Below are positions 2,637-11,985 of a DNA stretch of 64,000 nucleotides, one piece after another; within the stretch, counting starts at the first letter, position 1, and each line of letters starts with the position of its first letter. The notes below the pieces were generated by a model. It saw only the letters and a program-made list of their open reading frames with translations. It was not told the origin of the DNA and made no database searches. Location of the stretch: the NCBI GenBank assembly GCA_029261895.1, contig JAJDAK010000011.1:3424-67423 (forward strand). Direction: 5' to 3'. A program made the translations under genes and the position numbers. This DNA comes from Deltaproteobacteria bacterium. Its GTDB lineage: Bacteria; Myxococcota_A; UBA9160; SZUA-336.

Positions 2637-2755
2637 GAGCCAATACCCCCGGCGCCAATTCTCGCAGGATACCCTTTTTCGACGCCAACGGAGTCCCAGC
2701 CGTTGTAGAATATCGTCTGACACACCGTCAGTTTTCTGTGAAGGGAAAGGATCAG

Positions 2756-5700
2756 ATGCCAGCGCGGTACCTCATGGGCTTGGACCTCGGCGGCAGCGGA
2801 GGGCGCTGCCTATTACTGGATCCGGATTCCGGAGAGCAGTTCGTGAGCACGCGCGCCTGGCGCCACGCTCCGGTTCAAGACCAGGGCAATCTCGCTTTCA
2901 ACCTTAACTTTAATGAAATCGATCAAGCCCTTACCAACACCATTGCTGAGGCGCTGGAGCTGGCGGGAGCACAGGCTTCGGACATCGCTGGAATCGCGTG
3001 TACCGGAATGCGCCACGGCATGGTCCTGACCGATCGCGACCTGCAACCCATCTTCGCGGTCCCGACCCGCGATACACGAGCTGCGCTCAGCATCGGCGAA
3101 CTGGTGAACAGCGTCGGACCGCGCTGTTTGGAAGAATGCGGTTCCTGGCCGAACCCGGTTCATCTGGCTACCCGACTGCGCTGGCTCGCAACCACCCAAG
3201 ACGAGCTTTGGCGAGAGGCGAGCTGCGTGCTCGGCATCGGCGAATACTTTGCAGCGCGGCTCAGCGGCGAAGCCGCTGCGGAGCCCTCCCAAGCCAGTGC
3301 CAGCGTGTTGTTGAATCTCGCGAGCCGCGATTGGGCCTGGAACTTAATAGATGACTTGAACTTTCCACGTGAACTCTTTCCAGCAGTTCGTGTTGCAGGA
3401 TCTCCGCTTGGACATGTCACAGACGAGGCCGCCTCGGCGCTTGGATTGACGCCCGGCACGCCGGTGATCATCGGCGCTGGCGATACGCATGCTGCGTTGC
3501 TGGCGGCTGGCGTTGTGGAGCCCGGGCAGATAGGTATCTGTGCCGGTAGCACGGCTCCGCTCATGGGCGTTCTCGAGACGCCGCGCATCGATCCCGACGG
3601 TCGCCTTTGGGTCGAACCCCATATCATTCCTGGACGCTCGGTCGTTGAAAGCAACGCCGGTGGCGTCGGTGAAGCGCTCGAATGGTTCGCCCGCTTGCTC
3701 TTCCGCGATGAGATCTACCCGATGGATCACCTCTTTGCGAACGCCGCCGAAGCCAGGCTTGGATCCCGCGGGGTGCTTTCGACTTTAGGGCCGCAGGTGA
3801 TGGACGGAAAGTCGCTCGCTTTCCCCCTCGGCCGTATTCACCTCACACCGTTTTCACTGATCGACACCGCAGCCGATCGCGCGGATCTCGCGCGTGGTGT
3901 GGTGGAAGGGATCGCCTATGGGTTGCGCGCTAACGCCGAACAAATCATCGCGCATATGGGGACGGTCCCCGAGGAAATCGTAATTACCGGTGGACTGGCG
4001 AGGAATACATTCTTCACTCAACTCTTGAGTGATGTATTGAATCGCCCTGTTGCGGTAGCCAAAGGCGAGCAGACCACGGCGCTGGGAGCTGCACTCTCTG
4101 CCGGGGTCGGTGTAGGCGTATTCGAGAATCTCAGCCAGGCCAGCGCAGTCACGCGTGCTGTGGAACGCCGACATGAACCCCATCCCGATCACGCCGCCGC
4201 CTACGAGTCGATCTACCAAGGTTGGTCGCGTGTTCGTAATGCGGCGATGCCCGGGGATGCCGAGGCGGCCGGCTTGACGATCCAGACTTCGCTGCGTGAA
4301 GCACCAGCGGTCCAATCCTCAGCCGCGCTGCGTTTTCGTCCGAAGATTCTGGTGACCGCTGAATTGGATGCGTTGAGCCTCGAGCGGCTGCAGAATTTGG
4401 GTGACGTCGAGTACGCGAGTTTTCGCGACGCCATGCGGTTGCTCACGGGACCCGACTTGGTCGAAGCCCTCAAAGGCGTACACATCTTCATCACGGAAGT
4501 GGATGTTGTTGACGCTGCGGTGCTCGAACAAGCGACAGACCTCCGGGCGATCGCCATCTGTCGCAGCGACGCGGTAAACGTGGACCTCGAAGCCTGTACC
4601 GCCGTTGGCATCCCCGCGTTGCACGCACCCGGTCGCAATGCCGACGCGGTGGCGGATCTCACACTCACCTACATGCTCACACTGGCGCGCAAATGGGTCG
4701 ATGCCACGCAGTTTCTGCAGCGTCCCGGCGGCGAGGCCGGCGACATGGCGCGGATGGGTCAGGCGTTTCAGGAACTCCTGGGTCACGAGCTTTGGCAGAA
4801 AACCGTCGGCTTGGTTGGCCTGGGTGCCGTGGGTCGACAGGTCGCGAAACGTCTGCAAGCATTCGGCGCAAAGCTCTTGGTCTTCGATCCATATCTCCCG
4901 TCTCAGGCCGCGCGTGTGCTTGGCGCAGAACCCGTTGATTTAGACGAGCTACTCACGCGCAGTGATTTCGTCAGCCTGCACGCTCCCGTTACTCCCACGA
5001 CTGAAGGGATGATCGGTGGGCCCGAGTTCGGACGCATGAAACAGGGTGCGATGTTGATCAACTCGGCTCGCGCTGCGTTGGTCGACTACGACGCGTTGAT
5101 CACGAGTTTAAAGAGCGGTCACTTGGGTGGCGCCGCGGTGGATGTCTTTCCGATCGAACCGCCCGCGGCCGACGACCCGCTGCTCTCCATACCCAATTTG
5201 ATCGCGACGCCACATATCGGTGGGAACACCGTGGAGGTCGGCGCCCACCAGGGCGAGATTATTACGGACGATCTCACACGCATGCTCCGCGGCGAAGCGC
5301 CGCAGCACGCGTTGAATCCCGCTGCACTCGAGCGGTTCCGTTGGGACGGAAGTCGGGAAACCCTGGACACCGACACCTGGGATGACCTCAAGCGCGCCGC
5401 AGGTCCGACGGTCTCGGGTCCACAGAGGGCACCCGCCGTTGCAGCGGTTGCGGCAAAGCCCGAGACGGATCCAGCCTCGCGCCGCGACGACGCACAGTAC
5501 GTGAACGCGCGAGCCAAGATGCAGCCGCTTCTCGGAGCATTCGTGGCGGATTGTCTGGACGATGATGCGCTCGGCACGTTCGCTAACGGCAAATCCGTCA
5601 TCCTGCATTTCATCTTGAACGATCTCGACTTGGACTTTCAGCTGGGCTTTGCGGGTGACCGTGTCATCGGTGAGCTAGGCGCACCGAATCCAGATCCTGA

Positions 5701-6580
5701 CGTACAGCTAAAAATGAAAGCCGATATTTTCGACGGCATGTTCACGGATCGCGTCAATCCAATGCAGGCTGCGATGAACGGAAAGCTCAGCTTCAGCGGC
5801 GATACCGCGAAAGCGATGACGCTGCAACAGATTCAAGCGGATCTCTCACGAATCTACAGCGCCACACGCGAGAGAGTTGGAGATCCCGGGGATCTCGGCG
5901 CGCTCGAGCCTGCTTCGGCCGCGGTTTCGGTCCCGGAAGGCGGCGAGGGCCAAGCGTTGAAACAGGAATTGGTCGACGTGGTGAACGAACTCTATTCCAC
6001 ACAGTTGATCACGGCGACCGGCGGGAACGTCAGCGCGCGAATTCCGGAAACGGACGAACTCTGGATCACACCCAGCCAACTCTTTAAGGGCGACCTCTCG
6101 CCCGAAATCCTGGTGCGCATCGATATTGAGGGCAAGGCGGTGGGAGACCAAGCCCTCTCGGCGTCGAGCGAACGTATGATGCACTGCGCGATTCTGAAAG
6201 CGAAACCGGAAGCGCAGGCCGTTGTTCACGCGCACGCCCCCCATGCGACCATTCTTGCCAATACCGGCCTCCCCTTCTTACCGATCTCCACTGAAGCGGC
6301 GTTCTTCTCGGAGATCCCACGCATACCGTTCATCATGCCGGGTACGAACGAGCTCGCAGAGGCTATCGCGGAAGCGATCGGTGATGGTTGGGCGGTCTTG
6401 ATGCAAAATCATGGGTTGTTGGTCGCGGGTCGCAGCCTGCGCCGAGCCGCAGACATGGTCGAAATCATTGAACGCACCTGTGAAGTGATTCTGGGTTGCT
6501 ACGCCGTCGGTAAAGAACCGCCCGTGCTACCCGAAGAAACCGTTGCGATCTTGCGAGAGATGGGCGACCTCGTCGCCTAG
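2756..6580 (+). CDS. Four-domain fusion protein: FGGY carbohydrate kinase, D-isomer-specific 2-hydroxyacid dehydrogenase, SCP2 sterol-carrier domain, class II aldolase/adducin domain
   Basis: One continuous frame (ORF track 2738..6580 from a GTG start). The ATG at 2756 follows the AGGA-rich stretch ending at 2751. Kinase: GLDLGGSGG...IGAGDTHAALLAAG...GGLARNTFFTQLLSDVLNRPVAVAKGEQTTALGAALSAG. Dehydrogenase: VGLVGLGAVGRQVAKRLQAFGAKLLVFDPY...NLIATPHIGGNT. SCP2: NPMQAAMNGKLSFSGDTAKAMTLQQI. Aldolase: ATGGNVSAR...SSERMMHCAILKA...VVHAHAPHATILA. Confidence 0.8.
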   Translation: MPARYLMGLDLGGSGGRCLLLDPDSGEQFVSTRAWRHAPVQDQGNLAFNLNFNEIDQALTNTIAEALELAGAQASDIAGIACTGMRHGMVLTDRDLQPIFAVPTRDTRAALSIGELVNSVGPRCLEECGSWPNPVHLATRLRWLATTQDELWREASCVLGIGEYFAARLSGEAAAEPSQASASVLLNLASRDWAWNLIDDLNFPRELFPAVRVAGSPLGHVTDEAASALGLTPGTPVIIGAGDTHAALLAAGVVEPGQIGICAGSTAPLMGVLETPRIDPDGRLWVEPHIIPGRSVVESNAGGVGEALEWFARLLFRDEIYPMDHLFANAAEARLGSRGVLSTLGPQVMDGKSLAFPLGRIHLTPFSLIDTAADRADLARGVVEGIAYGLRANAEQIIAHMGTVPEEIVITGGLARNTFFTQLLSDVLNRPVAVAKGEQTTALGAALSAGVGVGVFENLSQASAVTRAVERRHEPHPDHAAAYESIYQGWSRVRNAAMPGDAEAAGLTIQTSLREAPAVQSSAALRFRPKILVTAELDALSLERLQNLGDVEYASFRDAMRLLTGPDLVEALKGVHIFITEVDVVDAAVLEQATDLRAIAICRSDAVNVDLEACTAVGIPALHAPGRNADAVADLTLTYMLTLARKWVDATQFLQRPGGEAGDMARMGQAFQELLGHELWQKTVGLVGLGAVGRQVAKRLQAFGAKLLVFDPYLPSQAARVLGAEPVDLDELLTRSDFVSLHAPVTPTTEGMIGGPEFGRMKQGAMLINSARAALVDYDALITSLKSGHLGGAAVDVFPIEPPAADDPLLSIPNLIATPHIGGNTVEVGAHQGEIITDDLTRMLRGEAPQHALNPAALERFRWDGSRETLDTDTWDDLKRAAGPTVSGPQRAPAVAAVAAKPETDPASRRDDAQYVNARAKMQPLLGAFVADCLDDDALGTFANGKSVILHFILNDLDLDFQLGFAGDRVIGELGAPNPDPDVQLKMKADIFDGMFTDRVNPMQAAMNGKLSFSGDTAKAMTLQQIQADLSRIYSATRERVGDPGDLGALEPASAAVSVPEGGEGQALKQELVDVVNELYSTQLITATGGNVSARIPETDELWITPSQLFKGDLSPEILVRIDIEGKAVGDQALSASSERMMHCAILKAKPEAQAVVHAHAPHATILANTGLPFLPISTEAAFFSEIPRIPFIMPGTNELAEAIAEAIGDGWAVLMQNHGLLVAGRSLRRAADMVEIIERTCEVILGCYAVGKEPPVLPEETVAILREMGDLVA

Positions 6581-7650
6581 GACTGAACCGTTCGCTTGCC
6601 CAAGAGATTGAGCTTGTAGCGACGTATCGTCTCGGGGGCGATCCGTTGACCATCGGTGCTCTCAAATGCGAGCGCGTCCATCGGGCATTGCACGACGCAA
6701 GCACCACAGCGCACACAACGATCGTCATGAGCCAAAATCGCTTTACGAGGCTCTGATTGTTTTTCGAAGCACGCTTCCGGACAAACCTCCCAACATGAGA
6801 ACACGCCCTGGCAACGATCCCGGTCTAGAGAGATCCGCCACTCGCGCTCCGCAAAATGACTTCCACCTTCAATAGGCGTTGAACCGGAGTAATCGAATGT
6901 CAGTACACCGGACAAAAACCATGTCGAGAGAAATGCAGCAGCCCAGGTGCTCGGACCCCCATGGATACAAAGGACCACGAGTGCAGCGACCGCAGTTGCA
7001 AGTAGCGTGAACAAGGTTCTTCGCGGTTCTGGCAAGCGGTCATAGAACTGAAACATGGTGATCGCAAGGACGACCGCCCAAATGACAATCGGCAAGGCGA
7101 ACTCGGAAAATGCAAACGCCCCAACGCCACCGACTACGATCGCCGTAGGAGTCGCCCAGGCGGCCGCCATTTCCAAGCGTTCACGCGTGCCGAAGCGTAC
7201 GCGCCGCATTGCGTCGTCTTTCTTCGCGCCACGCGCGAGATAGCGCGGAATATCTACTGCATCCACGGGACCGAAACGAACCTTCCAACCACAGCGGCGT
7301 GACACCTCGCGTGCTTCAACGCCCGTCGCCGCCAGTTGAGGCAAGATCGCACGCCGATGGGTGACTCGATCTTCGATGCCCGAAGTTTTGAGCGCACTCA
7401 CGACCTGATGCGTGCTGAAGTGTCCTCCCGCAGCCGCGCACCAGATATTGATGCCCGAACTCGGCGCAACGACCAGCCACGCGTCCATACCTTTGAGGGC
7501 TCGGATCACAGACCGAACCGTGAAATCGTAGTTCCCGGTCACGAGTACCGGACTGCTCGAATCCGGTTGCCCGATCGCTCGCAGGCCCGGTTCGGTCGAC
7601 CAGGGAAAAAGACGAAAGCCGGTTTGCATGACGTTGCGCAAGAGACTCAT
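6577..7650 (-). CDS. HgcA-like corrinoid-binding membrane protein fused to an HgcB-like 2x[4Fe-4S] ferredoxin (fused HgcAB-like)
   Basis: ORF track 6577..7893. The ATG at 7650 forms an ATGA overlap with the stop of the upstream methyltransferase. The N-terminal domain has the HgcA-family signature VLVTGNYDFTVRSVIRALKGMDAWLVVAPSSGINIWCAAAGGHF and the downstream DRVTHRRAILPQLAATGVEAREV motif. About 4 predicted TM helices follow. The C-terminus has CQGVFSCWEVCPEAC and CVRCGACVVQCP. Confidence 0.75.
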   Translation of the reverse strand: MSLLRNVMQTGFRLFPWSTEPGLRAIGQPDSSSPVLVTGNYDFTVRSVIRALKGMDAWLVVAPSSGINIWCAAAGGHFSTHQVVSALKTSGIEDRVTHRRAILPQLAATGVEAREVSRRCGWKVRFGPVDAVDIPRYLARGAKKDDAMRRVRFGTRERLEMAAAWATPTAIVVGGVGAFAFSEFALPIVIWAVVLAITMFQFYDRLPEPRRTLFTLLATAVAALVVLCIHGGPSTWAAAFLSTWFLSGVLTFDYSGSTPIEGGSHFAEREWRISLDRDRCQGVFSCWEVCPEACFEKQSEPRKAILAHDDRCVRCGACVVQCPMDALAFESTDGQRIAPETIRRYKLNLLGKRTVQS

Positions 7651-8300
7651 GGGTTTGGCTGCGCGACAATAACGACGAGCGTTCCAAACAAAAACCGCTG
7701 CTCGTGATGGATACGAAACCCGGCGCCCGTAATTTCTTCGACAAGATTGGGAATCGGTCGTGACACTGAACCGACCCAGAACCAACCCAACAAGGCTTGC
7801 GGAACACGCATGAAGGCAAATGTAATGCGTGCAAACACGCCAGATGGGCGCACTTCGTCGGCGATAACCAACAATCCACCGGCGCGAATACATTCGCGCG
7901 CGGACTTGAGCACGTGGTGACGCTCTAGACGCGAGAGTTCAGAGAATGCAAAACTTGCAACGACGGCATCGAACTCTCCGGGTTCAAACTGATCGACCTC
8001 GGCAGCGGTTTGTTCGAGCCAGCGTAAGTTTTGGGCATCCACGAGACGTGTTTTTGCAATCGCAAGCATCTCCGGATTCTGGTCCAGCGCCACCACACGG
8101 GCACCGCGAGCCACCAGCTTCGCCGTAAGCGATCCCGTACCACAACCGATTTCGAGTACGTGAGTTCCGTGCACCGATACCGCAGCGTCTGCGACCGCAC
8201 GATGTATCCGTCTTGCCCGTCCCAACGTTAGTATGTTCATACCCACGTCGTAGCGTTCGGGCGTCGACTCGAGCCATCGCATCAGCGCAAGCGAACTCAT
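7647..8300 (-). CDS. Class I SAM-dependent methyltransferase (Methyltransf_11/25-type)
   Basis: 217 aa. Motif I is VLEIGCGTGSLTAKLVARGARVVALD. The gene has 4-nt ATGA overlaps with the upstream TetR (8297..8300) and the downstream HgcAB-like gene (7647..7650). Confidence 0.8.
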   Translation of the reverse strand: MSSLALMRWLESTPERYDVGMNILTLGRARRIHRAVADAAVSVHGTHVLEIGCGTGSLTAKLVARGARVVALDQNPEMLAIAKTRLVDAQNLRWLEQTAAEVDQFEPGEFDAVVASFAFSELSRLERHHVLKSARECIRAGGLLVIADEVRPSGVFARITFAFMRVPQALLGWFWVGSVSRPIPNLVEEITGAGFRIHHEQRFLFGTLVVIVAQPNP

Positions 8301-8878
8301 GCTGCTAGCACCTTGCGAACACTCATCACTAAGGCTGTTTCAAGTCCGCCGATATCATCAAACGCTCGCCGATCCGCCAGGTACTGCAGAAGCAGACCAT
8401 CCATCGACGCGATCAAAAACGACGCCGTCCAAACTGAATCGAGGTTCGAATCAATCGATCCATCGCGCTGGCCTTCAGCGATCACCTCGGCGAGCAATTG
8501 ACGAATACGCCGAAAAAAATTTCGAAAGTCCAATGCTCGCAACGTGTGCAGGTCGAGCGTGATCGATCCGTTCCGCGACCAGGCTTCAAAGACGTGGCTC
8601 ATTCCAGTCATCAACTGCTCGATACGGCGCGTCGATTCGCCTTTCGACTCCAAGACGCCCCGGAATAGCTTTTCTTCGCTCTCGAGGAGATCACGCGCGA
8701 TGTCGCGAACCAACGACGACTTGTCGGGGTAGTAGTGGTACAGACTTGATCGACCCATACCGGCCGCATCCGCCACCGCGGCAAGCCCGGTGCCTTTGAT
8801 ACCCCGACGTCCAAACACACGCCGAGCGGCAGTTCGAATCTCGGCTTTCTGCGCCACACCATCGACGATCTTTGGCAT
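8297..8878 (-). CDS. TetR/AcrR-family transcriptional regulator
   Basis: 193 aa. The N-terminal helix-turn-helix is RRVFGRRGIKGTGLAAVADAAGMGRSSLYHYYPDK. It is the first gene of the TetR-MTase-HgcAB-like operon. Confidence 0.8.
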   Translation of the reverse strand: MPKIVDGVAQKAEIRTAARRVFGRRGIKGTGLAAVADAAGMGRSSLYHYYPDKSSLVRDIARDLLESEEKLFRGVLESKGESTRRIEQLMTGMSHVFEAWSRNGSITLDLHTLRALDFRNFFRRIRQLLAEVIAEGQRDGSIDSNLDSVWTASFLIASMDGLLLQYLADRRAFDDIGGLETALVMSVRKVLAA

Positions 8879-8969: not shown

Positions 8970-9788
8970 CTATGAATTGCGCGAAAAGAAGAGCCGCTTC
9001 GCGTTCATGTAGAGATACTTGTCGAGCACGCCTTCGCGCAGATCGAGCCCAGCGGCTTCTTCAAGACAGCGCACCATCGAGAGTGCTGGGTGGTCGGAAG
9101 CAAAGATCACTTTGTCCTGGCCGCGCGTATTCATGTAGTGGATGAGCTCGGGCGGAAAATACTTTGGCGCGTACGCACTGGTCTTCAGATACAGGTTCTT
9201 ATATTTCAGCATCAACCGAATGGCTTCCTGCCACCAGGGGTCGGTGCCATGCGCCATCACCAGCTTCAACTCCGGAAAATGAAGGCATACTTTGTCGAGG
9301 TGCATCGGGTGCTGACATTCGCCGGGCACAGGCGGCCCAGGAATCCCCGTGTTGATCGTCACCGGTAAATCGAGCTCGATGCACTTGGCATAGACGGGAT
9401 AGTAAATCGGATCGCACCCCGGTCGATCGATCCAGAACGGCGTGACCCGCGCGAGAACGACCGGATAATTTTCCGCGAAACTCTCGAGCGCCCGAATGAC
9501 TTTCATCCCGCGGCGAGGATCCACCTGCGCGCCCAGCGAAAAGCGATCGGGATGGGCCTTGGGAAATGCGAGCACGTGGTCCGATGGCCGCTCGGGCTCC
9601 GTGGTGACGATCGCGCGTTCCACTCCCAAGCGATCCATTTCCTCCACGACTTCCTCGACTGAGTAATCGCGAAAAAAATCTTCGCCGCCATTGAACAGGT
9701 CTTCCGCCACGCGCACCAGGTAGTCGGGGCGGCCCAACTCGCTCATGTTGACGTTGATCCAGGTATCGATCGCCCGGAGATCAGTCAT
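8970..9788 (-). CDS. Amidohydrolase-2 family metal-dependent hydrolase (ACMSD/LigJ-like)
   Basis: 272 aa with PF04909-like features (HGTDPWW..., a C-terminal FASDHP motif). It overlaps the Rieske oxygenase gene by 8 nt. Confidence 0.7.
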   Translation of the reverse strand: MTDLRAIDTWINVNMSELGRPDYLVRVAEDLFNGGEDFFRDYSVEEVVEEMDRLGVERAIVTTEPERPSDHVLAFPKAHPDRFSLGAQVDPRRGMKVIRALESFAENYPVVLARVTPFWIDRPGCDPIYYPVYAKCIELDLPVTINTGIPGPPVPGECQHPMHLDKVCLHFPELKLVMAHGTDPWWQEAIRLMLKYKNLYLKTSAYAPKYFPPELIHYMNTRGQDKVIFASDHPALSMVRCLEEAAGLDLREGVLDKYLYMNAKRLFFSRNS

Positions 9789-10752
9789 CGCCGCGTAGAA
9801 TTGGCACGCTGAAAAACTGCTTCATCCAGCGTCGGTAGGTACCAATCTGGCCGTCTCCATCGCAGAGCAGTGGTCGGCTGTAGTAGTGCTTGTTCTCCCA
9901 AATGACGATGTCCTCCGCCATTTGTTTTTCCAAGTCTTTAACCAGCGCCGCTCCCACGCCCCGAGTGGCCGAAACCCCGTCGACCTCACGTACCGCGTAC
10001 GCGAAACTCACGTCAGTTGTGTCTTCATCAATCGGCGTTGAGGTATTGACCATCAAAGTTTCCGCGATTCCCGAAACATCAACGGTTTGCAACCCCGGCC
10101 CATAGTCCGTCGTATCGATCCCACCAGTGATCTCACCCTGCGGCGTACCCATCTTCATACGCGATCGGCAACGCAGAATATGACCGTCGATGTCGACTTC
10201 GGTCTCGGGAGACGTATGCGTGCCGTGCACGTAGCGGAAATGAATTTGATCGACAGCGTTCTCGTTCATATCCAGCCAACGACTCTTCACCGTCCAGCGT
10301 CGGATTTGATACGGCGACCATTCCGAAGACCCACATTGCCATAGCTCGGGCACCTCATACGAAGGCGGCTCGTCCTGATCGTGATACCAAGTAAAGAGCA
10401 AGCCGTTACGTTCGACCAAAAGCCATGCACGCATCTTCGCCGTACGAGGAATTTTCTTCGCATACGGAATCTCGATACAGCGCCCTTCTCCATCCCAGAG
10501 CCATGCGTGGAACGGACAGCGAATTCCCTTGCCATCTACCGTACCTCCAAAACCGAGATGCGCGCCCAGGTGAGGACAGTGCGCGTCGAGCAGATGTGCC
10601 TCGCCTTCTTCATCACGAAAGAGCACCAGATGCTGACCGAAGTAGTGCAACGCTTTGACCTCGCCGGCCGCGATGTCATCCGCATACGCGATGCGAAACC
10701 AACCGTTCGCATAGGCGGGAAACGGAAAACGTTGAGAAATCTGACGATCCAT
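9781..10752 (-). CDS. Rieske [2Fe-2S] non-heme iron oxygenase alpha subunit (phthalate-dioxygenase/KshA/VanA-like family)
   Basis: 323 aa. Rieske motif CPHLGAHL...CPFHAW, followed by a catalytic domain. Confidence 0.8.
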   Translation of the reverse strand: MDRQISQRFPFPAYANGWFRIAYADDIAAGEVKALHYFGQHLVLFRDEEGEAHLLDAHCPHLGAHLGFGGTVDGKGIRCPFHAWLWDGEGRCIEIPYAKKIPRTAKMRAWLLVERNGLLFTWYHDQDEPPSYEVPELWQCGSSEWSPYQIRRWTVKSRWLDMNENAVDQIHFRYVHGTHTSPETEVDIDGHILRCRSRMKMGTPQGEITGGIDTTDYGPGLQTVDVSGIAETLMVNTSTPIDEDTTDVSFAYAVREVDGVSATRGVGAALVKDLEKQMAEDIVIWENKHYYSRPLLCDGDGQIGTYRRWMKQFFSVPILRGDD

Positions 10753-10803
10753 CAGATACGACGATATCTGTGGTGCGTCCGCAACGCAAGCGCTTTTCCG
10801 TGG

Positions 10804-11985
10804 TTAGGAATCGAAAAGTACCGGGACGCGATCGGGACCCCGAAACATGAGACCCACCACCCCGCATTGCTGGTCCAGATCGAGCCGAAGGCCAGGCAAG
10901 CGTTCGAAGAGCGCGCGCATGCCGATCTCCGCCTCCAGATACGCCAGGCGAGATCCCGCGCAATAGTGCTTCCCGAAGCCAAACGCGATGTGATCTTTGG
11001 CATCGCGATGGATGTCGAAACGAGCCGCGTCTTTGAAGTGTGATTCGTCGCGGTTCGCGGAACCGATCCCTACCAAGACTTGAGAACCGGCTGGAATCAT
11101 CGTGCCGGCAATCTCCACGTCCTCCAATGCCCGACGGGTCACGAGCTGCACCGGAGACTCCCAGCGCAGTCCCTCATCCAACGCAGGCCGCAGCATGTCG
11201 GGTACCTTGAGAACTTCATCGAACTGCGCAGGATCCCGGAGCAAACCGAGAAACGTGGAACCCATCAGATGATACGTCGTCTCCGCACCCGCGAGCACGA
11301 GCAGTCGGATGAAGCTCACGATCTCCTCTTCCGTCATCCGCTCACCGTCGATCTCCGCGTGGACCAGCCGTGTAATCAAGTCATCGGTCGGCTGCTGTTT
11401 TCGTTTTTCGACGACGGGACGCAGGTAGTCGGCCATACGTTGGGACGCTTCAAGACCACGATTCGCATCCACGGTAACGTGCGTGAGCGAAATCGCCCAG
11501 CGATGAAATTCGGCAACGTCGTCCACGGGCAAACCAAGAAGTTCGATAAATACTTTCAACGGATACACGAACGTAAACGCTTCCACCAAATCCGCCATGC
11601 CGTCATCAGCGAACTGATCAATCAGCTCATGCGCGATCGACTCAACGAGTTTTGGGAAGTCGCCGCGCAGCGCTCTCGGGGCTAACGCGGGTGTCACGAT
11701 ATTTCGATGCTTGAGATGCTCTTCACCATCCATCGCCACGATGGTGCGCCCCATCACCAGACTGATCCCTACGTCATTCGAGCTATTGGAAAACACCCGA
11801 TCGTCACGAAGCGCACGCGCTACATCGTCGTAGCGCGTGATGAGATACCCGTCGCCACCAATGGTTTGTATTTTCAGCACGGGGTGATCGCGTCGAAGCC
11901 GGGTATATGCCGAAAAAGGATCGCGCACCGCATCGAGTTCGCTGCCACCAAATACATCGATAAATGTCGGCGCGGCATCCGTCAT
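10804..11985 (-). CDS. Cytochrome P450 monooxygenase
   Basis: 393 aa. Heme-binding loop FGFGKHYCAGSRLA. ATGA overlap with the upstream TetR. Confidence 0.85.
   Translation of the reverse strand: MTDAAPTFIDVFGGSELDAVRDPFSAYTRLRRDHPVLKIQTIGGDGYLITRYDDVARALRDDRVFSNSSNDVGISLVMGRTIVAMDGEEHLKHRNIVTPALAPRALRGDFPKLVESIAHELIDQFADDGMADLVEAFTFVYPLKVFIELLGLPVDDVAEFHRWAISLTHVTVDANRGLEASQRMADYLRPVVEKRKQQPTDDLITRLVHAEIDGERMTEEEIVSFIRLLVLAGAETTYHLMGSTFLGLLRDPAQFDEVLKVPDMLRPALDEGLRWESPVQLVTRRALEDVEIAGTMIPAGSQVLVGIGSANRDESHFKDAARFDIHRDAKDHIAFGFGKHYCAGSRLAYLEAEIGMRALFERLPGLRLDLDQQCGVVGLMFRGPDRVPVLFDS

Follow-up and report, generated by a model that had tools for sequence, protein, structure and literature searches.

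The closest described relatives of the protein treated here are the mercury methylase HgcAB and proteins in which its two components are joined. True HgcA, for example that of Pseudodesulfovibrio mercurii ND132, combines a corrinoid domain homologous to that of the CFeSP, which carries the motif G-[IV]-N-[VI]-W-C, with a membrane domain, and is partnered by a dicluster-type ferredoxin, HgcB, which is a separate protein. For true HgcAB, S-adenosylmethionine (SAM) has been reported as the methyl donor, acting through a Cys-ligated methylcobalamin (PMC11588087). Fused HgcAB proteins have been in print since 2015 (Podar 2015, PMC4646819) and were considered again by Gilmour 2018 (PMC5893877), Capo 2022 (PMC10087281), and Lin 2023 (bioRxiv 10.1101/2022.11.21.517362). 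Two organisms with fused genes, P. furiosus (Podar 2015) and M. methylutens (Gilmour 2018), formed no methylmercury (MeHg) in whole-cell tests.

The window analyzed here, a stretch of 64,000 nucleotides from a genome labelled Deltaproteobacteria bacterium (assembly GCA_029261895.1, contig JAJDAK010000011.1, positions 3,424 to 67,423 of the forward strand), encodes a protein of this kind, referred to as P0001, on the minus strand at 6577..7650. P0001 has the above features in common with true HgcA, but its ferredoxin is fused into the same chain and, unlike true HgcAB, it has a dedicated SAM methyltransferase, CpaM, attached to it. It is almost certainly a member of the HgcAB-like fusion family, whose signature is, with the same near-certainty, the deviating cap-helix motif of P0001. 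The family is already catalogued, and the copy in the window is one more member of it, with the architecture, the cap-helix signature, and the upstream CpaM of other members.

Family assignment and phylogenetic position

The gene extends from an ATG at 7650..7648 to a stop codon at 6579..6577 and codes for 357 amino acids plus stop. The listed open reading frame (ORF) extends as far upstream as 7893. Its ATG at 7650, however, overlaps the stop codon of the upstream gene (ATGA), and a protein starting there can be aligned with its relatives over the full length. Compared to the NCBIfam model NF043039 (‘HgcAB-like fusion protein’), P0001 scored 399 bits (cut-off 285, E 2.4e-119), with residues 5–327 covering positions 2–349 of the 350 model positions, and a search of the whole genome agreed with this result. 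With such an E value against a curated model, the match is not due to chance. The scores stayed below the cut-offs for true HgcA (NF040863; 177 versus 275 bits), where only the corrinoid domain aligned, and for HgcB (NF040864; 53 versus 99 bits). P0001 was not recognized as a CFeSP large subunit either, as only positions 264–385 of the 387 positions of profile PF03599 aligned to it. A survey of NF040863 scores in 201 genomes of one phylum, reached via a locus labelled Desulfobacterales (L079), revealed separate bands for true HgcA (296–473 bits), fusion-like proteins (143–178 bits), and CFeSP (mostly around 65–90 bits), and 62 of these genomes exceeded the cut-off. With its 177 bits P0001 belongs to the middle, fusion-like band.

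A phylogenetic tree of 93 corrinoid domains (74 from fusion proteins, 16 from true HgcA, and three CFeSP as root) was calculated from 124 alignment columns by a quick search. All 74 fusion sequences were located on one side of a branch with an SH-aLRT value of 93, and the 16 true HgcA sequences stood apart (SH-aLRT 97). P0001 grouped inside the fusion clade among sequences labelled Myxococcota. Because of the quick search and the small number of columns the inner forks were poorly resolved, but the split between fusion proteins and HgcA agrees with that described by Lin 2023.

The family was also looked for in single genomes representing each species. This gave at least 600 matching stretches, and of the 600 listed, 547 code for a relative; the 80 loci with the best matches entered the analysis. 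They fell into 53 loci with approximately 53–67% identity to P0001, mostly labelled Myxococcota or Deltaproteobacteria, and 27 loci with 40–47% identity from Chloroflexota, Acidobacteriota, Aminicenantes, other bacteria, and several archaea. Of 41 genomes that share family and class with the host, the host itself being counted, 11 contained a protein above the NF043039 cut-off, indicating a patchy spread.

The cap-helix motif

A variant cap-helix motif had been noticed in a sequence-only reading of the window, and the minus-strand sequence and its translation confirm the presence of GINIWCAAAGGHF at 7417..7455 (minus strand, residues 66–78, 13 residues); in frame, the cap region reads S65-G-I-N-I-W-C71 followed by A-A-A-G-G-H-F78. 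The interval that had been assigned to the motif, 7420..7458, is off by one codon, as it includes Ser65 and omits Phe78, whereas the retained cysteine had been placed correctly (Cys71, TGC codon at 7438..7440). The same reading rightly noted that the lysine of HgcA is replaced; P0001 has Gly at this position, Cys+4. The residues following the cysteine are A-A-A-G-G-H in P0001 versus A-A-G-K-G-T in HgcA, and all of these changes are substitutions (Ala replaces Gly at Cys+3, Gly replaces Lys at Cys+4, and His replaces Thr at Cys+6). The extra alanine postulated for P0001 does not exist: an insertion is ruled out by a MAFFT alignment of the 74 fusion, 16 true HgcA, and three CFeSP sequences, in which the cap helix is free of gaps, and the HMMER alignment of P0001 to the solved CFeSP structure 2h9a is likewise gap-free in this region.

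The altered helix is not a peculiarity of this protein but is common to the whole family. This was determined in three sets of sequences, which may share members and are not independent of each other. The near set consisted of the 120 best homologues listed, namely P0001 itself and 119 others with 60–67% identity. The pattern G-x-N-x-W-C was matched in 119 of these 120 sequences, P0079 being the sole exception, and 119 carried WCA[AS][AS]GG[HLM]; a lysine was present in none. The residues after the cysteine were AAAGGH (n = 53), AASGGH (n = 47), ASSGGH (n = 8), AAAGG[LM] (n = 9), and AASGG[LM] (n = 2). In the second set, which comprised the 80 loci introduced above, the pattern was found in 78 loci (not in L062 and L080), none of which had Lys at Cys+4. 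Two glycines occupied Cys+4 and Cys+5 in 77 loci, and L036 had G-A-G at Cys+3 to Cys+5. The distant set contained 120 listed homologues of the archaeal locus L054; 119 of them matched the pattern and one more was recognized by eye, again with Lys at Cys+4 in none. One of these proteins, GINVWCSAAGGHF, bears the name of a Thermococcus atlanticus isolate.

True HgcA sequences sampled from the NF040863 survey read WC[AS]AGK[GR]TF in all 16 cases, and Cys+4 is the only cap-helix position that is fixed differently in the two groups (73 of the 74 fusion rows have G, and all 16 HgcA have K). The middle residue of N-x-W-C is Ile in P0001 and Val in 71 of the 74 family rows. As far as can be judged from these alignments, the family signature is N-[VI]-W-C-x-x-x-G-G without lysine; it was derived in the present analysis and has no published definition. 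Other differences between the corrinoid domains of the fusion family and of HgcA are fixed outside the cap helix (T44/S, V45/F, A62/L, V83/L, L87/I, T109/P, and W122/F, respectively). Literature searches with the motif strings gave matches that, judged by their titles, had no link to the HgcAB-like fusion family, and the phrases ‘corrinoid protein-associated methyltransferase’ and ‘HgcAB-like’ were not found in the papers listed, the term CpaM being swamped by unrelated acronyms.

Capo 2022 lists six motifs of verified methylators (NVWCAAGK, NVWCASGK, NVWCAGGK, NIWCAAGK, NIWCAGGK, and NVWCSAGK). When the helix was compared to this known variation, as the sequence-only reading had proposed, NIWCAAAG of P0001 fell outside all six. 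It could nevertheless be argued that P0001 does methylate mercury and merely tolerates the variation of its cap helix, with Cys71 ligating cobalt and Hg(II) receiving the methyl group in the manner of HgcAB. The cysteine and the N-x-W-C core are invariant in the HgcAB-like fusion family, the corrinoid, membrane, and ferredoxin parts are all present, and some cap-helix substitutions in ND132 left activity, according to Capo 2022 citing Smith 2015. However, P0001 scored below the cut-offs of both HgcA and HgcB and belongs to a separate clade, and together with the ferredoxin, culture, and host data described below this makes a methylase of this kind very unlikely.

The comparison with the large subunit of CFeSP (AcsC/CdhE; 2h9a, 2ycl, 4c1n, and 4djd), which has the B12-binding fold in common with P0001, bears on the direction of these changes. 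Small residues occupy Cys+3 to Cys+5 in both (A-A-G, A-G-G, or T-S-G in CFeSP, A-G-G in P0001), but CFeSP has Thr or Ala in place of the cysteine and no N-x-W. It also differs from P0001 by an N-terminal [4Fe-4S] domain, a TIM-barrel domain, and the lack of a membrane domain. The state of the fusion family resembles that of the three CFeSP rows at Cys+4 (G, A, and S), W122 (W in all three), and T44 (T, T, and D), which suggests, on the basis of three outgroup rows, that the lysine of HgcA is a derived state.

Two histidines close to the motif were considered as well. His77 as an alternative cobalt ligand is ruled out because this position varies across the family (H, L, M, Q, E, Y, N, I, R, K, or F). 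His81 (7408–7410), ten residues past the cysteine, does not vary among 50 bacterial and archaeal sequences of the family. At the aligned position, four true HgcA have D, E, S, or R, and three CFeSP have L, D, or E; going by these alignments, His81 is a family-specific invariant residue.

Domain structure and the ferredoxin part

All three parts of P0001 lie in one chain, as identified by Pfam matches and, for the membrane helices, by an AlphaFold2 (AF2) model. The corrinoid-binding domain is encoded at 7201..7608 (minus strand, approximately residues 15–150; Pfam CdhD at residues 15–136, supported by Foldseek). It is followed by a membrane domain at 6895..7188 (minus strand) with four helices predicted by DSSP on the AF2 model (residues 155–180, 182–205, 210–228, and 233–252), compared to five reported for HgcA (Cooper 2020, PMC7305189), and by an HgcB-like ferredoxin domain at 6646..6840 (minus strand, approximately residues 271–335; Pfam Fer4 families at 273–335). 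The AF2 model, built from an alignment of 50 rows, had a mean predicted local distance difference test (pLDDT) value of 85.9 and a predicted template modelling (pTM) score of 0.81. Its top Foldseek match was the deposited HgcAB model 9a0b_A (E 7.6e-13, 34% identity over 285 columns), and CFeSP structures matched with root-mean-square deviations of 2.3–2.6 Å over 126–132 columns (2.3–2.4 Å over 126–129 columns for 2ycl, 4c1n, and 2h9a).

The ferredoxin part departs clearly from HgcB. The first cluster motif of P0001 (6753–6813, residues 280–299) reads C280-x5-C286-x3-C290-P-x2-C294, and the second, C312-x2-C315-x2-C318-x3-C322-P, reads CVRCGAC and is not followed by any further cysteine. In 70 family sequences with a recognizable second CX2CX2CX3CP motif, a cysteine after this motif was absent from 68 and present once in two. 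In the first motif, 68 sequences had V, A, I, R, or S in place of the second cysteine, and 65 had a cysteine three residues past C-P. The canonical first motif was kept in 12 of 93 distant-clade proteins. The altered first motif could hold a [3Fe-4S] cluster or a cluster with an unusual fourth ligand. True HgcB was recovered beside 12 of the 16 true HgcA, and all 12 had two canonical motifs, CMECGAC, the GVGC cysteine, and Cys-rich tails; P0001 lacks CxECGAC, the conserved cysteine past the second motif, and the Cys-rich tail. In HgcB, mutation of Cys73 abolishes methylation and loss of both C-terminal cysteines reduces it by 95% (Cooper 2020). The fusion family thus is without the thiols proposed for handling mercury.

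The cysteine missing past the second motif in 68 of 70 family sequences is essential in true HgcB (Cooper 2020), which argues further against a working mercury methylase, as do the two fused-gene organisms that were negative for MeHg, although the whole-cell result for P. furiosus may reflect mercury uptake rather than the enzyme (Podar 2015). The earlier suggestion of a paralogue rather than a true methylator is thus borne out by the profile models, the tree, the motif outside the list of Capo 2022, the loss of ferredoxin cysteines, and the negative cultures with fused genes. The best explanation, held with good confidence, is that P0001 is a typical HgcAB-like fusion protein, which stands beside true HgcA as its sister and does not serve to methylate mercury, and a physiological role in mercury methylation is correspondingly improbable.

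The missing lysine and the missing HgcB cysteines might also be read as signs of a decaying or non-functional hgcAB relic, and they are the only features that would fit this explanation. It is contradicted by conservation: close listed homologues are 60–67% identical, many columns are invariant in 50 bacterial and archaeal sequences, and the NF043039 score is far above the cut-off. As the 357-amino-acid frame is also intact and translationally coupled, the probability of a relic is negligible.

Gene neighbourhood and proposed function

Directly upstream of the fusion gene and on the same minus strand lies a gene for CpaM (7647..8300, 217 amino acids), a corrinoid protein-associated SAM methyltransferase that scored 253 bits with NF043040 (cut-off 180) and matches Pfam Methyltransf_25, Methyltransf_11, and UbiE. 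Its GxGxG segment is kept, with G52, G54, and G56 being invariant. It is preceded, again on the minus strand, by a gene for a TetR-family regulator (8297..8878, 193 amino acids; Pfam TetR_N and TetR_C_6). Both junctions are ATGA overlaps, joining the cpaM stop codon with the ATG of the fusion gene at 7650..7647 and the tetR stop codon with the ATG of cpaM at 8300..8297. A scan for promoters gave two sites versus 0.9 expected by chance and was uninformative.

In 75 of the 80 loci, the fusion gene is preceded on its strand by a CpaM homologue, with a median gap of 39 nt between the alignments, and two of the five loci without it (L024 and L051) were cut by a contig end. A TetR homologue directly before CpaM was present in 33 of the 53 near-clade loci and in none of the 27 distant-clade loci; the subclade of P0001, mostly Myxococcota and ‘Deltaproteobacteria’, thus differs in this respect from the subclade of Chloroflexota, Acidobacteriota, and archaea. 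When all ORFs of at least 90 amino acids within 4 kb of the fusion gene were clustered in the 80 loci, no further recurring gene was detected. The recurrent clusters were the fusion gene, CpaM, TetR, and their shadow frames, followed by a cluster from eight loci that is antisense to the fusion gene. In one protein of 634 amino acids (P0122), CpaM (residues 3–179, 231 bits) and the HgcAB-like part (residues 292–619, 335 bits) are joined in one chain, which supports a joint function of the two. In a locus labelled Methanofastidiosia (L071, 2676–4001), approximately 680 nt separate CpaM from the fusion gene, and another gene may sit between them.

A possibly related arrangement has been described for the Nitrospina-type HgcA-like proteins of the open ocean, which Lin 2023 discusses together with the fused clade. 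According to the legend of Villar 2019, their neighbours include a UbiE-type methyltransferase, recalling CpaM, a likeness that holds at the level of the description. Unlike P0001, these proteins reportedly lack an HgcB part.

The sequence-only reading had suggested a different donor or acceptor chemistry, which is so far a conjecture. The methyl donor of the fusion module is likely to be SAM, since a SAM methyltransferase is encoded upstream, and it would then be the methyl source in common with true HgcAB, on whose use of SAM (PMC11588087) this step of the proposal leans. In the proposed mechanism, the ferredoxin domain would reduce the corrinoid cofactor to Co(I), which would be methylated by the translationally coupled CpaM or, as in true HgcAB, by SAM directly. 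The resulting methyl-Co(III) corrinoid would have Cys71 as its lower ligand, and the methyl group would be passed on to a membrane acceptor that is unlikely to be Hg(II). The order from SAM via CpaM and cobalt to the acceptor is slightly favoured over its alternatives taken together. Since tetR, cpaM, and the fusion gene make up one operon in the Myxococcota-type subclade, a small-molecule ligand of TetR would probably switch it on there.

Alternatively, CpaM may be the terminal enzyme or the transfer may run in the reverse direction, so that the corrinoid protein takes a methyl group from a substrate, like a demethylase, or serves CpaM as a redox or cofactor partner. A dedicated loader does seem superfluous, given that true HgcAB needs no helper (PMC11588087). 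No conserved third catalytic gene was found within 4 kb in the 80 loci, and the position of CpaM as the first partner in both gene and fusion order is uninformative on the direction of transfer. On the other hand, an argument given in Cooper 2020 is that a Cys lower ligand favours transfer of the methyl group to a soft electrophile. CpaM belongs to SAM-dependent methyltransferase families and has kept the GxGxG segment. Known corrinoid demethylase systems, moreover, use TIM-barrel methyltransferases. A reversed or CpaM-terminal reaction is therefore considered improbable, though less so than a working mercury methylase.

Several points weigh against the reading of P0001 as a SAM-dependent methyl carrier with an acceptor other than mercury. 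Purified true HgcAB was methylated by SAM without a helper enzyme (PMC11588087), and CpaM may therefore do something other than load the cofactor; in addition, three loci (L045, L061, and L072) had no CpaM homologue despite room upstream. No HgcAB-like fusion protein has a demonstrated reaction, and the mechanistic steps are all inferred. That P. furiosus formed no MeHg is, as Podar 2015 points out, no proof of an enzyme incapable of methylating mercury, and the proteins of P. furiosus and M. methylutens, which were absent among the 120 listed homologues of L054, may not carry this exact motif. All true HgcA sequences used for comparison came from one phylum. In the AF2 model, residues 67–69 and 72–75 have pLDDT values below 50 and form a coil rather than a helix; the Cys-on geometry thus lacks structural support here and no structural inference was drawn, although an unstructured cap helix may be expected of a model without cofactor. 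Finally, a cobS match was not found in the host genome, and the corrinoid would therefore be imported or made by another route; the host may import corrinoid rather than make it.

The host genome is 96.5% complete. No second NF040863 match was detected in it, hence no true HgcA or CFeSP. It encodes one B12-dependent MetH and two haem-copper oxidase subunit I proteins, the latter being a further argument against a working mercury methylase. Two cobalamin riboswitches (106.9 and 94.7 bits) are arranged back to back on opposite strands of another position of the genome, outside the window (host contig C2:9057-9485).

Some genes flanking the module in the window may be mentioned. Upstream of tetR-cpaM-fusion, on the minus strand, lie an Amidohydro_2 gene (8970..9788), a gene for a Rieske/KshA-type oxygenase (9781..10752), and a frame (10804..11985) that by eye resembles cytochrome P450, with an FGxGxHxCxG-type segment. 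Oxygen-dependent enzymes (8970–11985) thus adjoin a low-potential corrinoid system, an arrangement that is not conserved beside the module elsewhere. On the other side, a plus-strand frame of 1280 amino acids (2738–6580) is convergent with the fusion gene and overlaps its stop codon by 4 nt; it joins FGGY kinase, 2-hydroxyacid dehydrogenase, SCP2, and class II aldolase domains.

A more far-reaching and clearly speculative scenario, which is considered possible but doubtful, would place Cys-on corrinoid methyl transfer before mercury methylation. The fusion family already has the thiolate ligand of N-x-W-C, yet resembles CFeSP in A-G-G, W122, and T44; HgcA would then be the derived form, having gained the lysine and a Cys-rich HgcB. 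CpaM and the fusion protein would use SAM to methylate a different soft electrophile, for instance a metalloid or an organic compound that reacts with thiols, and would be induced by a ligand that releases the TetR repressor in Myxococcota-type hosts with haem-copper oxidases.

For mercury-methylation surveys, these results mean that scoring of hgcA-like hits can pick up the HgcAB-like fusion family. A single residue separates the sampled groups, as Lys at Cys+4 was present in all 16 true HgcA and in none of 119, 78, and 120 fusion-family sequences of the three motif sets, respectively; a motif filter that includes the lysine therefore removes the family. The statement in Capo 2022 that fused proteins ‘include the cap-helix motif’ is looser than the pattern observed here. 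The HgcAB-like fusion family itself is widespread and conserved, is translationally coupled to a SAM methyltransferase, and is present in organisms with aerobic respiration.

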